In this document: positions 34,538 through 40,202 of the stretch, one piece after another
How the letters are laid out: the number at the start of each line of letters is the position of its first letter
How positions within the stretch are numbered: the first letter of the stretch is position 1
DNA from: Drouetiella hepatica Uher 2000/2452
Lineage (GTDB): Bacteria > Cyanobacteriota > Cyanobacteriia > Elainellales > Elainellaceae
Assembly (NCBI GenBank): GCA_019359505.1
Contig: JAHHHD010000019.1
Coordinates: forward strand, 1 to 64,000
Length of the DNA: 64,000 bases
Reading direction: 5' to 3'
The notes under the pieces: generated by a model
Told to the model about the DNA's origin: nothing
The model's database searches: none
What the model saw: only the letters and a program-made list of their open reading frames with translations
Made by a program: the position numbers and the translations under genes

Positions 34538-35083
34538 ATGCAAATTACTGATCTTAGTCCTGACCATGACACAGCAATTCAGCAGACTGCATCAATAGTG
34601 CTCGATTGCTTTGGACATTTGCCGAGCGGCTATCCAACGCTGGAAGATGCGCTTCAACAAGTCCAAGAATCGTTTGCGCCAGACCGGATCAGCCGCATTG
34701 CCCTTGATCATTCAGGGATGGTTCTGGGTTGGATTGGAGGCATTGAGCAGTATGACGGGCATATCTGGGAACTACATCCGCTAGTGGTGAAATCCGGTTT
34801 TCGAGGACAGGGCATTGGGCGATCGCTAGTGCAGGATCTCGAAGCACAGGTGAGACAGCGAGGAGGGCTGACTCTCTGGTTAGGAACAGACGATGAGGAG
34901 GCAAAAACTACATTATCAGGAGTTAACCTCTACCCTAATGTATTTGACCATATTGCATCAATTAGGAATCTGCGGCAGCATCCCTATGAGTTTTACCAAA
35001 AGTGTGGATTTGTAATTGTGGGAGTGATGCCAGATGCTAATGGATTGGGGAAACCTGATATCTATATGGCAAAGCCAATTTAA
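34538..35083 (+). CDS. GNAT acetyltransferase closely resembling the AAC(6')-Ii type of aminoglycoside 6'-N-acetyltransferase
   Basis: WELHPLVV...GIGRSLV...LWLGTDDE...TLSGVNLY...IASIRNLRQHPYEFYQKCGFVIVGVMPDANGLGKPDIYMAKPI parallels the remembered E. faecium AAC(6')-Ii C-terminal half. Confidence 0.8.
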   Translation: MQITDLSPDHDTAIQQTASIVLDCFGHLPSGYPTLEDALQQVQESFAPDRISRIALDHSGMVLGWIGGIEQYDGHIWELHPLVVKSGFRGQGIGRSLVQDLEAQVRQRGGLTLWLGTDDEEAKTTLSGVNLYPNVFDHIASIRNLRQHPYEFYQKCGFVIVGVMPDANGLGKPDIYMAKPI

Positions 35084-35937
35084 TCTCCTTGTGGATACCT
35101 ATTCCATAGGTTTGTAGTTTGATGCAAACTTGTATAATTACCTCCACCCAATATAAGGTGATCAATAATTTGTATATTCATGATGTTTGCAGCTTGTAGC
35201 AAATGCTCTGTGAGATTAATATCTTCAGGTGATGGTTGTATTAAGCCTGAAGGATGATTATGAGCCACAATACCTCTTGAAGCATTAACCTCGATAAGAG
35301 CTTTGAATATCTCTTTTGGTTCAGCATATGTCTCTGAAGCCGTTCCAATACTCACTATTTTTTTGCCAATCATTTGATGCTTAATATCAAGCATGATGAT
35401 TGCAAACTTCTCGACTGGACTCCACATTAAATCTGCGGTCAAAGCTTCGGCGGCTAGTCCTGGATCGTCAATCACCGTGCTAACCATAGGGGAAGGTGCA
35501 TAGACTCTTTTCCCTAGCTCGATCGCTGCCAAAATAGTTGCTGCCTTTGCCTCGCCAATTCCGTAGACATTCATCAGTCTCTCTGGGGTAATGTGGCGAA
35601 GTGCTGCGATCGCTCTCTGCCCGTTGTCTTCCAGTGACGCTAAAAGAGTGTGTGAGAGGTCTATTGCTGACTGGTCGCCCTGTCCTGAGCCTAAAAGAAC
35701 AGATAGAAGGTCTGAATTTGACATATAGGCACCTCCAGAGGCTAGAAGCCTGTCGCGGGGTCTTTCGCTGGCTGGAAGGTCTTTGACTCGCAGTGTGGCA
35801 CTACTACCCGCAATTCGAGCGTAGCTGTAGCCCGTTGGATGTTCTGGCTCCTGCTGAATATCTAGACTTTGAAAAGATGCGTTTTTTAGTTCGGGAACTA
35901 CCTCAAGAGAAGAATTGATATTTGAACTGAGAGACAT
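35080..35937 (-). CDS. radC: RadC-family JAB/MPN domain protein
   Basis: HNHPSGLIQPSPEDINLT JAB motif and an HhH-like GIGEAKAATILAAIELGKR. The gene converges on the GNAT gene with a 4-nt overlap. Confidence 0.85.
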   Translation of the reverse strand: MSLSSNINSSLEVVPELKNASFQSLDIQQEPEHPTGYSYARIAGSSATLRVKDLPASERPRDRLLASGGAYMSNSDLLSVLLGSGQGDQSAIDLSHTLLASLEDNGQRAIAALRHITPERLMNVYGIGEAKAATILAAIELGKRVYAPSPMVSTVIDDPGLAAEALTADLMWSPVEKFAIIMLDIKHQMIGKKIVSIGTASETYAEPKEIFKALIEVNASRGIVAHNHPSGLIQPSPEDINLTEHLLQAANIMNIQIIDHLILGGGNYTSLHQTTNLWNRYPQGD

Positions 35938-36000
35938 ACAACATTACAAAACAACAAAGTTAGAAGCTGACTTTAATCAAAAATTATTCTCTAATCAAAT

Positions 36001-36578
36001 CTAAAATCGCTCTTTGCCAATTTTCCAGAGTTGATTTAACCCTTCCCTGGTCTCTGCTGGCAAAAGCGGATAGCCTAACCAGACCGTATATGCAATCAGA
36101 ATTACCGCTAAAAGCTGCTCAAGAGCTGAGCCAGTTCGGAAAAGCTTAAGCCCATACCTTTTTTGGAGACTGGAGACAGAAGGGGAATCCCTGAAATGGT
36201 TAGAGCATCGCCTACCACATGAAACAAGGCTGAAAAGCCGAGCCAGAAAATATAGGGCTTGCCTGCGATCGCTCCCCACAGAATTAGCCCTAGCCAGAGA
36301 CTGGGTGCATGAGTGAAGCCTCTATGTCCAAAAACAGCGTTCAGAAGCTGTGCAAGGGTTGAGGCAATCCCATCTAGCACTTTCGCCAGTCCATAGGGTA
36401 TGAACCGCCCTAGAATCGTCCCTGGTCGTGTGATGACTGCTCCATCTACATCAATATCAGGGAGAAGTGAGCCTATGAGGATGCAGGTAATATCTAAGGC
36501 TGCTAAAGGCAGGCTGTAGATACGGGCGATCATGATTGCAGAGGAAAGGCTAAAAAGTATATGCGTTGGTGCAAGCAA
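36001..36578 (-). pseudogene. YdjM/DUF457-type membrane-bound metal-dependent hydrolase, frameshifted in a homopolymer
   Basis: ORF 36108-36578 (MLAPTHILFS...LLPDIDVDG...HRGFTHAP) ends shortly after an A6 run on the coding strand (plus-strand T6 at 36159-36164). The overlapping frame 36001-36279 continues with family-like KRYGLKLFRTGSALEQLLAVILIAYTVWL. One extra A would fuse the two. Confidence 0.6.
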
Positions 36579-36587
36579 GGGGTGAGC

Positions 36588-36734
36588 CTATGACTCTTCA
36601 CTGCTGAGAACCGGAAATTTGAAGGTCTCAACGGTTGCGATCGCCTGCTGCTCAATTTCATAAAGCTCGGTCAGTGTCTCTGATAGTGAAAGCTCAATAT
36701 CTACTGACTCAAGTAATTTATCAAGTTTGTCCAT
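36588..36734 (-). CDS. Possible small ORF (48 aa), below the ORF-track threshold
   Basis: ATG at 36734 to TAG at 36588-36590. It fills the gap between the 264-aa ORF and YdjM on the same strand. No other support. Confidence 0.25.
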   Translation of the reverse strand: MDKLDKLLESVDIELSLSETLTELYEIEQQAIATVETFKFPVLSSEES

Positions 36735-36739
36735 ACTCT

Positions 36740-38619: not shown

Positions 38620-39048
38620 ATGATAAAAAACAAAGAAAGTGTACGTATTAAGGCAACACAGTCAGACAAACAAGAAACGCTCGTTAAAACACTTAAAGAA
38701 CGAGATTTATTTAGATTCTATGGTACGGAACAATATTTTAAGCACTGGCTTGGAATATATATATATACAGATGGAATTAAATACTTAGCTGAGCATGGTA
38801 AAGCTCATTGGCTTATTGATGAAATAGTTTTTTACCAAAAAGACTTAAGAATCAAAAATGATGAAATGCTTCAAAGTATTCAATTTTGGAATTTAATTGT
38901 GAACAAAGACTCAACAGCAGAATTAATATGTGAAAGAGACGAGGGAGACGTAGCGTTAAAGAAGGATATTGATTATACAGACTTTCCTTTAGAAAAAGTT
39001 ACTATTTACGTTCAAGAAAATGTAATTTTACTTCCTAGTGAATACTAA
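38620..39048 (+). CDS. Conserved plasmid protein downstream of ardA (tentatively DUF6876-like)
   Basis: LFRFYGTEQYFKHWLGIYIYTDGIKYLAEHGKAHWLIDEI resembles a family I recall being adjacent to antirestriction genes. The assignment is tentative. Confidence 0.5.
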   Translation: MIKNKESVRIKATQSDKQETLVKTLKERDLFRFYGTEQYFKHWLGIYIYTDGIKYLAEHGKAHWLIDEIVFYQKDLRIKNDEMLQSIQFWNLIVNKDSTAELICERDEGDVALKKDIDYTDFPLEKVTIYVQENVILLPSEY

Positions 39049-39106
39049 CTTACATAAATAATATAAACAAAATAATTTTAATATCACTTTCTACACACAC
39101 CGCGAA

Positions 39107-39180
39107 AGAGTTATTAACAGGGCTAAAGGCTTACGAGGCTTTTAATTGCCTCTCCAGCCTAAAGCCCTGTTAATAACTCT
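39107..39180. other. Long imperfect hairpin (~74 nt) in the ardA-side intergenic region
   Basis: AGAGTTATTAACAGGGC (39107-39123) pairs perfectly with GCCCTGTTAATAACTCT (39164-39180). Further partial pairing and an inner GAGGC/GCCTC stem extend it. Confidence 0.7.
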
Positions 39181-39299
39181 AACGCTCCTGCACTTGTAAC
39201 GCACACAGCAGCAATACACCCATGCAGCAAAGCTGCCTTTGTGCATATACAAAAGTATATGCATTTTACAAAAACAAAAAAAATTACAAGGAAACACAA

Positions 39300-39577
39300 T
39301 GAACACAGAAACTACAGAAACTATAGAGGAATTCATCCCAAACAAACCATTTCTAGTACAGAACATAAACTTCTTATCAGCTTCAGAGCTTATGGAAGAA
39401 GTTCAAAAAAGAGACTTCCTAATCGGCAGTTTATACGAGCAAGTCGAAGAAGGGAAAAACCAGTATGAATTTTCAAGCGAGAAAATGTACATACAGTACA
39501 AAAAGTATCTATTATTAAATACTCTGTACTTCATTTCAATTTTTACTCTTTTTCTGCTCTTAGAAGGCGGCTCTTAA
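39300..39577 (+). CDS. Small hypothetical protein with a C-terminal TM helix (92 aa from ATG 39300)
   Basis: ATG 39300 is chosen over the track start at 39239. The C-terminus is LLLNTLYFISIFTLFLLL. Confidence 0.4.
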
Positions 39578-39863
39578 TTAATCAAATAATTTATTTTTTA
39601 CCTGAAAAAAAGCTTGATTTTATTAAGAATTTCAGGTACTTTATTTCTTCACACCCATGCACCCAAGTAGATACAAAATCAACCAAGTGCATATACGAAA
39701 CCATTACACAGCAAGCTCTTTTCCTGGTATACACATTCGATCGCCCCAGTAACTACCCAGGTTAACCACCATCTTCCAACTACTTCCAATACACACAAAA
39801 ACTAACCTGTAACAAGTAAAATGCTTTAGCTATAAGGTTATTTTCTTAAGGCAGAATCCGATC

Positions 39864-40202
39864 GTGTCTAAAAACAACCAAAAGCGACCATGCGGGGGTA
39901 GGACTAAAAGGGCAAACTACAAAACGGTAGTGATCCGAGTGCCGGTTCCGTTAAAAGCTCAGGTAGAAGGGCTGATTTCTGCCTTCCATGAAGAGAACGA
40001 TCGCTATTTGGCTCTACCTATCGCCGGCTCCTGGTGGGAAGTGCTAGGGGTGTCTCCTGGTGCGTCTGTTGATGAAGTGAAGCAGTCTTATCGATCGCTT
40101 GCTCGTCTGTATCATCCAGATAGCAACAAGCGGAGAGACGCGGAAGCAAGATTTGCTGCTCTCAATGAGGCTTACAGAGCTTTCCAGGCAGGTAACAGCT
40201 AA
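39864..40202 (+). CDS. J-domain (DnaJ-like) protein
   Basis: WWEVLGVSPGASVDEVKQSYRSLARLYHPDSNKRRDAEARFAALNEAYRAF contains the HPD motif. The start is GTG. Confidence 0.8.
   Translation: MSKNNQKRPCGGRTKRANYKTVVIRVPVPLKAQVEGLISAFHEENDRYLALPIAGSWWEVLGVSPGASVDEVKQSYRSLARLYHPDSNKRRDAEARFAALNEAYRAFQAGNS

Follow-up and report, generated by a model that had tools for sequence, protein, structure and literature searches.

A recurrent sense-strand motif and conserved stem-loops in a putative plasmid establishment module of Drouetiella hepatica

A short motif ahead of ardA and its neighbours

The window, by which we mean the whole stretch of DNA analysed here, comprises 64,000 nucleotides (nt) of Drouetiella hepatica Uher 2000/2452 (contig JAHHHD010000019.1, positions 1-64,000). 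Our subject is a short motif that recurs in it ahead of the anti-restriction gene ardA and two neighbouring genes. An initial annotation had described a cluster of genes for RadC, YdjM, ArdA and an ArdA-associated protein, had likened it to the leading region of a conjugative plasmid, and had proposed that the recurring element and a hairpin nearby might act as single-strand promoters of the Frpo/ssi type. Pfam searches agree with all of these gene calls. The genes of the cluster, including two open reading frames (ORFs) further downstream, and the three copies of the motif are as follows.

35080-35937, minus strand: gene for a RadC-like JAB protein (Pfam PF04002, E-value 4.7e-35, and PF20582), forming the left edge of the module, with ardA on the other strand
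36108-36578, minus strand: gene for a YdjM-family membrane protein (Pfam PF04307, E-value 4e-18)
37953-37995, plus strand: motif copy E1 (type A), with ACACC at 37956, ACACCTATGCAGCAGAGCTG and then AAAAAGTGCGTTTTTGAAC, 71 nt before the ATG of ardA (profile E-value 6.5e-6)
38027-38581, plus strand: anti-restriction gene ardA (Pfam PF07275, E-value 1.5e-23)
38620-39048, plus strand: DUF6876 gene, coding for the "ArdA-associated" protein (Pfam PF21781, E-value 1e-42), 38 nt 3′ of ardA
39213-39262, plus strand: motif copy E2 (type A; ACACC at 39216), 83 nt upstream of the 39299 ATG (profile E-value 4.4e-5)
39299-39577, plus strand: ORF of 92 amino acids (aa) with an ATG at 39299 and a hydrophobic C-terminus
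39651-39667, plus strand: motif copy E3 (type B), ACACCCATGCACCCAAG, 213 nt upstream of the J-domain gene (profile E-value 1.8e-5)
39864-40202, plus strand: gene for a J-domain (DnaJ) protein of 112 aa with a GTG start (Pfam PF00226, E-value 4.5e-16)

The pattern ACACCYATGCASCMRAG has exactly three matches in the 64 kilobases (kb), at 37956, 39216 and 39651, all of them on the plus strand and ahead of plus-strand genes. In shuffled sequence 0.06 matches are expected, and none of 100 shuffles reached three. As the pattern was built from the three copies themselves, the independent test is conservation in other loci. Related contigs were reached through homologues of ArdA (49-67% identity) and of the J-domain protein (59-86%) in metagenomes and assemblies of sequencing runs. 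They are designated L009; L010/L011; L012 with the near-identical L013 and L016-L018; L039; L014; L015; and L042, and together with the window they make up about six independent lineages. The motif lies at homologous places in all of these contigs, and hence in five lineages besides the window: counterparts of E1 are at L009:511, L010:9342, L011:4920, L012:5920 and L014:5188, and those of E3 at L009:1511, L010:11190, L012:7163, L014:7454 and L015:949. The motif heads three units in the window and, in those relatives that are fully sampled, two or three each; the contig of L015 is short, and only its J-domain copy is visible. The claim that three genes are each headed by a related element is thus borne out, with positions correct to within 1 nt. 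Its second half, which had been described as GTGCGTTTTT or GTGCATATAC, is present in the sequence but only loosely conserved elsewhere: a word resembling AAGTG(T)GC recurs in the relatives, and GTGCATATAC is specific to the window.

Alignment of 14 copies from the six lineages leaves an 11-nt core with the invariant columns ACACC-N-A-NN-CA. This core is unchanged even though the ArdA proteins are only 49-67% identical and the spacers of the most divergent lineages are largely unalignable. A profile built from the 14 copies matched only those copies in 348 kb and a further 44 kb, always on the gene strand; this sequence included the whole window and unrelated cyanobacterial loci, and held no other match at E < 0.09. 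Type A copies stand 45-83 nt before an ATG, which belongs to the gene that opens the ArdA/DUF6876 unit or to another small ORF; type B copies stand 213-225 nt upstream of the J-domain gene. After the core comes a perfect stem of at least 4 base pairs (bp) in 11/14 copies, as against 2/24 other ACACCNA sites in the same sequences. This stem is usually of 4-6 bp, with a loop of 2-4 nt. In type B copies it changes in compensatory fashion between lineages (GCAC/GTGC in L010, GCAAC/GTTGC in L014, CACT/AGTG in L015), the three type B copies that have no good stem being E3 of the window and those of L009 and L012. In three type A copies the fifth pair is a G.T on the plus strand, and E2 is followed by a small window-specific hairpin, GCATATAC-AAAA-GTATATGC.

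We also observed a lineage-specific word of about 18 nt, resembling GTG(Y)TTTTGAAYC, that occurs twice per lineage, once in the gap between a type A motif and the ATG and once about 250-330 nt upstream, at a minus-strand promoter/terminator unit. The pairs are at 37990-37999 and 37756-37770 in the window, 9383-9400 and 9104-9122 in L010, and 552-570 and 262-280 in L009; in L014 the word is inverted. It may be a second shared binding site, putatively.

Beyond these lineages the motif was sought more widely. The exact pattern ACACCYATGCAGCARAGCTG gave 5 matches, in unrelated bacteria, among 185,579 representative genomes (a set that does not contain the source species), for a chance estimate of roughly 4. 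Neither the cluster nor the hairpin block of L010 had a blastn match in PLSDB. By tblastn, DUF6876 was found in many PLSDB plasmids of cyanobacteria; three that we inspected, from Microcystis, Calothrix and Halotia, are without the motif and have repeats of their own instead. That of Microcystis is a duplicated 5′ end of a gene, with ACACCATGC in it by coincidence. Further DUF6876 homologues (L043 and L044) show neither the synteny nor the motif. On these comparisons, the motif is restricted to a small family of elements from Drouetiella and uncultured sources.

Conserved hairpins and the transfer operon

The spacer after the DUF6876 gene holds a long hairpin.

39102-39185, no strand assigned: long hairpin of the H4 family, 84 nt, arms 39102-39139 and 39148-39185

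Its lower stem is perfect over 18 bp (39107-39124 with 39163-39180) and holds AGTTATTAACAGGG; above it come two internal loops and an apical stem, GAGGC/GCCTC, that closes the loop TTTTAATT. A hairpin of about 74 nt had been reported at 39107-39180, and it does fold far better than shuffles on either strand (z about -8.5). Folded as DNA, the 250-nt spacer reaches -47.9 kcal/mol on the minus strand and -45.7 kcal/mol on the plus strand, compared with about -20 kcal/mol for shuffled spacers (z -8.3 and -8.7; 0/200 shuffles as good). Homologues of H4 lie at L012:6515-6576 (apical stem CAGGC/GCCTG) and L010:9920-9978 (GAGAT/ATCTC), so that the apical stems covary around a loop, TTTTAATT, that is the same in all. 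All three members are placed after the DUF6876 gene. The relatives have further conserved hairpins, H1 and H2 upstream of the cluster and H3 after DUF6876. When H1 and H2 of L009, L010, L011 and L014 were aligned as minus strands, RNAalifold returned 49 pairs, 15 of them with compensatory double changes. Among the hairpins as a whole, the loops TTTTAATT and AAACTTCGTAA are fixed. H4 is one of a conserved family of intergenic stem-loops in which structure and loop sequence appear to be under selection.

Several of the stems contain DnaA boxes. The exact box AGTTATCCACAG, with flanks like those of Escherichia coli R4, lies in the H1 stem of L009, L010/L011 and L014, where it stays constant while the outer stem covaries. 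An invariant pair inside it reads U.G in the folded minus strand, where the plus strand would have C.A. H4 of L012 has TTATTCACA in both arms, and the hairpin boxes account for nearly all TTATNCACA sites in the loci of those relatives. H4 of the window holds TTATTAACA, which is not a consensus DnaA box, and no consensus box TTATNCACA was found in the window's cluster. The 13-mer of the relatives' boxes recurs in the window beside the iterons next to repA (5483-5495).

The hairpins also carry a hint of strand. In 20 spacer regions, isolated mismatches within Watson-Crick helices were of the A.C type on the plus strand (G.T on the minus strand) in 11 cases, G.T on the plus strand in 4 and of other kinds in 15, and with RNA parameters six of six hairpin regions fold better as minus strand. 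The mismatches hint at minus-strand folding. Nonetheless, some of the positions behind the count of 11:4 are homologous, and with these merged it is not significant; the G+T richness of the minus strand explains part of the folding advantage, and the mismatches of the window's own hairpin are A.A and silent on strand. Hairpin and motif are independent modules: in L010 and L012, H4 stands 22-23 nt before the next ATG with no motif between, and E1 has no long hairpin.

Moreover, the cluster keeps a fixed relation to genes for plasmid transfer. The same gene set (RadC/YdjM, DUF6876, ArdA or DUF1281_C, and the J-domain protein) is present in 5 further lineages, and in the window, L012/L018, L014 and L015, which are all the lineages with contigs long enough, it lies 5-10 kb upstream of, and on the same strand as, an operon of accessory gene, TrwC relaxase and coupling protein. 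After the module come, in this order, one or more unknown ORFs, a minus-strand NB-ARC/TPR NTPase gene, a conserved noncoding block, small ORFs, the accessory gene, TrwC and the coupling protein; the contig of L015 ends where the gene in the TrwC position begins.

42333-45372, minus strand: NB-ARC/TPR NTPase gene (L012 8756-11458; L014 9631-12321; L015 3212-5680)
45590-45840, plus strand: noncoding block conserved in an alignment of four lineages (L012 11900-12160; L014 12520-12760; L015 6480-6700)
47228-51924, plus strand: transfer operon, consisting of an accessory gene (47228-47614), a TrwC relaxase domain (47608-48507), two unknown ORFs and a type IV coupling protein (50185-51924); Pfam PF08751, E-value 9e-60, and PF10412, E-value 1e-38; same order in L012 and L014

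The large NTPase, of the STAND type, always lies between module and relaxase operon on the opposite strand. The noncoding block is the only one conserved between the two. It holds ATCCTGGCACA, an invariant and perfect Shine-Dalgarno-like AAGGAGGTGA and a hairpin of about 110 nt with fully covarying stems and the loop TTTGGCGAC, together with an ORF of 14-15 codons whose frame is not conserved. From its position and conservation it is the best candidate for the origin of transfer (oriT), and may instead be a leader. A k-mer comparison and a search for nic-like cores over the four lineages found nothing decisive on oriT or nic, and no R388- or F-like nic core was common to the four. The nic site reads GGTGT/GG in F, and in R388 nic follows IR2 after 8 nt. 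The complement of the motif was considered as a TrwC nic-like site (hairpin-N9-GGTGT) and set aside, as there is no similar site near either relaxase gene.

In F and R388 the relaxase operon points away from oriT and enters the recipient last. By this rule, and given the orientation of the relaxase genes here, transfer would involve the minus strand, which would also serve as template for ardA. Anti-defence genes are reported to be oriented with the transferred strand as template (Samuel & Burstein 2024, PMC11541004). With oriT at 45.4-47.2 kb the plus-strand genes ardA, DUF6876, the 92-aa ORF and the J-domain gene would fit this, and the RadC and YdjM genes are opposite. The likeness to a leading region gains from the synteny with the TrwC operon in four lineages, by which the module would probably be the first to enter; RadC and YdjM lie on the other strand. 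Comparative sequence data support the view that the region is an establishment module, of the leading-region type, of a transmissible plasmid of the TrwC/MOBF type in filamentous cyanobacteria.

As regards the single genes, the minus-strand part of the cluster includes a 264-aa ORF besides RadC and YdjM, and the relaxase operon is on the plus strand like the genes from ardA onwards. The RadC gene adjoins the cluster also in L010, L012 and L014, the YdjM gene also in L011 and L014, and the DUF6876 gene, which in the window has the orientation of ardA, was found in every related locus. The ORF that had been placed at 39300 is there, with its start at the ATG of 39299; a Pfam search gave no family match for it, and L009 has in the equivalent place a 57-aa ORF with a hydrophobic tail. 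The J-domain protein has eight homologues of 59-86% identity, its N-terminal half being basic and conserved. Residues 1-55 (39864-40030) form a conserved basic stretch and an amphipathic helix ahead of the J domain, with the pattern GGR..NY.T...(R/K).P.P...V..LI..(F/W)H.EN and no family assignment.

The block of ardA, DUF6876 and 92-aa ORF with its spacers (37535-39863) has 30-36% G+C compared with 44% for the window, and CGATCG is absent between 37315 and 39738, in contrast to flanks where GCGATCGC is abundant; the block may have been acquired recently, or restriction sites may be avoided in it. The window has GCGATCGC 27 times and looks cyanobacterial. Its gene content is plasmid-like, with ParA, an RPA-type RepA, a Tc-toxin gene and a strawberry-notch-type helicase, and it carries two pairs of TrwC relaxase and coupling protein (6402-9664 and 47608-51924), that is, two separate modules on one contig. 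The second TrwC ORF has 299 aa and is followed by one of 274 aa, so the gene may be split; the relaxase of L012 has 622 aa. Among the cargo (10011-17978, 21496-31434 and 54875-55438) are a SpvB/TcdB-type toxin gene of 2655 aa, an ORF of 3312 aa and a gene resembling zeta toxins. Just 3′ of the RPA-type repA, at 5285-5495, are direct repeats in three copies (CCTGTGAATCAC..GGGATATCACACAC), a stretch rich in A+T and, on the minus strand, an exact DnaA box (AGTTATCCACAGG); this is probably the replication origin of the plasmid. Between 46560 and 47250, a small membrane-protein gene is tandemly duplicated and followed by an inverted-repeat region, AGCGATA..TATCGCC AGGTCATCACA, and then by the palindrome GTGCTGTATATACAGCAC just before the accessory gene, an arrangement absent from L012. 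A second hairpin at 46507-46535 (L012 12607-12640) has a run of A before it on the plus strand, and would be a terminator of the minus-strand type inside an array of plus-strand genes.

Candidate roles of the motif

The recurrence of motif and hairpins in related plasmids indicates, at the level of sequence comparison, that they are real control signals. The reading that we favour, tentatively and with a probability of about 0.38, is that the motif is a shared operator or leader signal, promoter-proximal, for co-ordinated and probably transient expression. As a sense-strand cis-regulatory "unit-start" signal it would head ardA-DUF6876, the small membrane-protein ORF and the J-domain gene, acting either as an operator in duplex DNA or, at the RNA level, as sequence at the very start of the transcript. 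A putative common regulator, inferred to be a binding protein, would act on all units, holding them down in an established host and releasing a burst of expression after entry into a new cell, as in zygotic induction; repression and de-repression are likewise inferred. Operators are considered because a short sequence at the heads of several establishment units has two experimental precedents, both of them repressor operators, to which we return below.

Two features of the J-domain leader are relevant to the position of the motif.

39601-39642, plus strand: promoter-like pair P1, with -35 TTGATT (39614-39619), a 17-nt spacer and -10 TACTTT (39637-39642)
39668-39863, plus strand: leader of the J-domain gene, conserved, rich in C+A and unstructured, with an invariant GGTATAC

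Across six aligned related sequences, TTGACT-17-TAARNN always stands 13 nt before ACACC; in the window, TTGATT-17-TACTTT stands 8 nt before it. With a conserved pair 8-13 nt upstream, the motif at the J-domain gene would sit at or just after the start of transcription. In the fold, the -35 of P1 is enclosed by an inverted repeat, CCTGAAA/TTTCAGG, and in L010 the pair comes after a terminator-like hairpin, the order being terminator, pair, motif. The G content of 39651-39863 is 12%. The leader has a second -10-like box, TAAAAT (39817-39822), after the near-palindrome CCTGTAACAAG, and across lineages, some 45 nt ahead of the J-domain gene, a TAnAAT box lies beside the palindrome CCTGTNACAGG. A hairpin precedes most type A copies, at a distance of 5-30 nt.

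A good deal weighs against the operator or leader signal in this form. The P1 pair falls below the threshold of a consensus promoter scan, and the -10-like hexamers at the J-domain gene are weak and mostly lack the final T. In scans of three loci no recognisable sigma-70 pair was found near E1, E2 or the type A copies of the relatives, and promoter-like sites were at chance level (9 vs 7.9, 8 vs 8.8 and 5 vs 5.6). No cluster ORF matches a helix-turn-helix or ribbon-helix-helix family, and no repressor was identified. The J-domain protein, which is the one gene product always associated with the motif, gave a poor AlphaFold model (predicted local distance difference test score, pLDDT, of 60) with no recognisable DNA-binding fold; we had considered it as a ribbon-helix-helix-type regulator and dropped the idea, as this model has no beta-strand. 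Moreover, the invariant core has neither dyad nor direct repeat, which is unusual for an operator, and the stem-loop that follows it (11/14 vs 2/24) fits recognition of a single strand, RNA or DNA, better than a duplex operator. The missing dyad, the missing regulator and the stem of variable loop leave some probability to the readings as RNA leader and as single-strand DNA signal.

According to the second of these, the signals work on the transferred strand: the minus strand would fold into the long hairpins, and host proteins would start RNA or primer synthesis on it before the duplex forms. The hairpins would be Frpo-like promoters or DnaA-box ("ABC primosome") ssi sites, and the complement of the motif (small hairpin-NNTN-GGTGT) would mark the start, giving products that begin 5′-ACACC. 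We hold this to be doubtful, an assessment that concerns mainly the hairpins. In its favour, the relaxase operon follows the module on the same strand in four lineages, by which the minus strand would be both transferred strand and template (PMC11541004). H1 and H2 have compensatory changes (15/49 pairs), and the loops TTTTAATT and AAACTTCGTAA of the hairpins are fixed; the strand bias (11 mismatches vs 4, the invariant U.G in the box, and 6/6 regions folding better as minus strand) points the same way; and exact DnaA boxes are found in H1 stems (AGTTATCCACAG) and in the arms of L012 H4 (TTATTCACA), with the 13-mer beside the repA iterons. A hairpin with a DnaA box has a precedent in the A site (PMC6127211), and the type A copies mostly follow a hairpin by 5-30 nt.

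Against it, a -35 and a -10 hexamer separated by 16-18 bp are found in no stem of any lineage. The window's H4 has only TTGCCT...TAATAA at 19 nt, its homologues in L010 and L012 share no conserved promoter hexamers, consensus scans found none in the H4 stem of the window or L010, and the only promoter-like site that touches a hairpin is on the minus strand of H3 in L012. The window's hairpin has only TTATTAACA in a cluster without TTATNCACA, its A.A mismatches are uninformative on strand, and with DNA parameters the strands are nearly equal (-47.9 vs -45.7 kcal/mol). The 11:4 count loses significance on merging of homologous positions, and the minus-strand advantage is in part an effect of G+T richness. 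Furthermore, E1 is without a long hairpin, the small hairpin at E3 has a -35-like hexamer in its loop, where it would be inactive, and the polarity of oriT is itself a prediction from the rule for F and R388. The more specific earlier suggestion, that the motif itself is a hairpin promoter of the Frpo/ssi type, is not supported: it is a sense-strand element of roughly 17 nt and not a long stem-loop, and at the J-domain gene it has an ordinary promoter-proximal layout. A long stem-loop formed from the presumed transferred strand upstream of a gene, as in Frpo, is found at 39102-39185 only (z -8.3) and not at the motif copies. The motif was also considered as a minus-strand promoter (TTACAG...N17...TATNNN) and rejected, since the -10 has no conserved final T and the match fails for type B copies.

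A full single-strand scheme, in which minus-strand hairpins with DnaA-box stems and fixed loops recruit DnaA and the primosome or RNA polymerase, synthesis starts opposite GGTGT (5′-ACACC) and the units are copied or transcribed before the DNA becomes double-stranded, seems to us decidedly unlikely. If true, it would be a single-strand promoter or priming design that, unlike Frpo, has no -35/-10 stem, and the first such outside enterobacterial plasmids.

Alternatively, motif and stem-loop may be read in the 5′ part of the mRNA, as an antitermination or stabilising site like boxA/boxB or as a processing site, and the long hairpins between cistrons would be RNA stem-loops that stabilise 3′ ends or serve as RNase III sites, like those of the early region of T7. 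Both halves of this proposal we judge unlikely. The motif is on the sense strand only and comes just after the promoter-like pair at the J-domain gene, as expected of a leader. The stems with variable loop length and compensatory changes (GCAC/GTGC, GCAAC/GTTGC, CACT/AGTG) and the G.T fifth pair on the plus strand of three type A copies fit pairing in RNA, but the three type B copies of the window, L009 and L012 have no good stem. In addition, in any transcript starting upstream of H1/H2 the type A copy of a relative would come about 250 nt after the 5′ end and not at it, and RNAalifold found no consensus pairs, and hence no consensus structure, in the alignment of the 280-nt J-domain leader. 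As to the long hairpins, they come directly after stop codons, and in L012, H4 scores as terminator-like on the plus strand, a site that would require read-through; yet they contain plus-strand C.A mismatches where the minus strand would pair. Finally, the proposal has no support from Rfam: against Rfam 15, the whole window gave 0 matches at the gathering score and only chance-level microRNA and small nucleolar RNA matches at E up to 10.

The better pairing of the minus strand would also be explained if the hairpin-rich spacers were transcribed leftwards into structured antisense or divergent RNAs resembling FinP or CopA, which we consider improbable. A terminator stands at the left end of the spacer.

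37693-37744, minus strand: Rho-independent terminator, for minus-strand transcripts only, with a stem of 17-18 bp and then T8, found by a terminator scan between the divergent gene sets

Terminators of the same orientation occupy the same relative place in L010 (9074-9044), L012 (5803-5775) and L009 (186-214), and this conserved minus-strand-only terminator implies some leftward transcription. L010 has in addition a minus-strand promoter matching 10/12 (TTAAGA-18-TATAAT) just upstream of it. Antisense RNAs typically have conserved apical loops on covarying stems, and the hairpins show such loops. However, the L010 promoter is only about 12 nt before the terminator, which would give an RNA of roughly 50 nt without H1 or H2; to the right of the hairpins there is no conserved minus-strand promoter, H4 of the window has no minus-strand terminator, and the motif would be left unexplained. 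As an observation apart, the conserved minus-strand terminators (window 37693-37800, L010 9040-9122, L012 5775-5803, L009 186-290), together with the promoter of L010, suggest a small minus-strand RNA gene of about 50-90 nt between the divergent gene sets.

That the motif is the start of a short leader ORF, with the ATG of ACACC-N-ATG opening a peptide MQQSC... at E1 and E2, is very improbable: ATG is present in 8/14 copies, and the window ORFs have 26-31 codons, one of which ends in an ATGA shared with the start of the 92-aa ORF, but AGG, AGT or ATA takes its place in 6/14 copies with the flanking core invariant, and the downstream frames and peptides are not conserved, so that the ATG was rejected as a leader-peptide start.

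Relation to known establishment signals

Repeated cis-signals of plasmid establishment regions are a known kind, and on sequence grounds the motif is a new member of it that matches no Rfam family and no PLSDB plasmid. In IncN plasmids, CUP sites ahead of ardB, ardK and repA are bound by ArdK (Delver & Belogurov 1997, as described in PMC6289460). As in this CUP regulon of pKM101/R46, a short sequence recurs here upstream of several leading-region genes, anti-restriction genes among them, and we liken the motif to the CUP sites because these tie leading-region genes into one regulon. In contrast to CUP/ArdK, the host here is a cyanobacterium, no ArdK-like regulator was found in the cluster, binding is putative, and the motif is strictly sense-oriented and often followed by a small stem-loop; in sequence it is not known to resemble CUP.

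The second precedent is the Bacillus plasmid p576, in which the heptamer TTATCCC at four establishment promoters is bound by Reg576, a system explicitly contrasted with single-stranded DNA promoters (PMC6294495). Here, too, one motif heads each establishment unit, and the proposed logic is the same, namely repression in the donor and transient expression after transfer. The p576 motifs, however, are paired direct repeats that flank recognisable sigma-A promoters, with a repressor gene in the cluster, whereas the motif of the window has a single asymmetric core, a promoter-like pair at only 1/3 units and no identified repressor. The core ACACC-N-A-NN-CA is unrelated to TTATCCC.

In Frpo, the -35 and -10 boxes lie inside the duplex stem of a hairpin of the transferred strand (Masai & Arai 1997; PMC11541004). 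The present elements resemble Frpo/ssi of F and ColIb-P9 in lying ahead of anti-defence genes in a putative leading region with long stable hairpins in the spacers, and differ in that no stem has -35/-10 boxes in any lineage, the repeated element is of roughly 17 nt, and hairpin and motif are independent. At the A site of the ABC primosome, a DnaA box lies in a hairpin of single-stranded DNA (Masai et al. 1990, 1995; as described in PMC6127211). Related loci share with it the exact box AGTTATCCACAG in a conserved hairpin stem, in a region expected to enter as single-stranded DNA. The window hairpin differs in having a degenerate box (TTATTAACA), and the hairpins described here in having conserved loops, which the A site does not require.

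What is defined here is a conserved establishment module linked to TrwC, with an 11-nt invariant core and structure-conserved hairpins, some of them with exact DnaA boxes. To our knowledge, leading-region biology rests on a few plasmids of enterobacteria and Bacillus, and almost nothing is known of it for cyanobacteria. Motif and hairpins are small, mutable targets with which de-repression could be set against the incoming single strand as the switch of anti-restriction, and with which priming of the complementary strand could be addressed. Moreover, they could help to predict the polarity of oriT and the leading regions of unannotated cyanobacterial plasmids.

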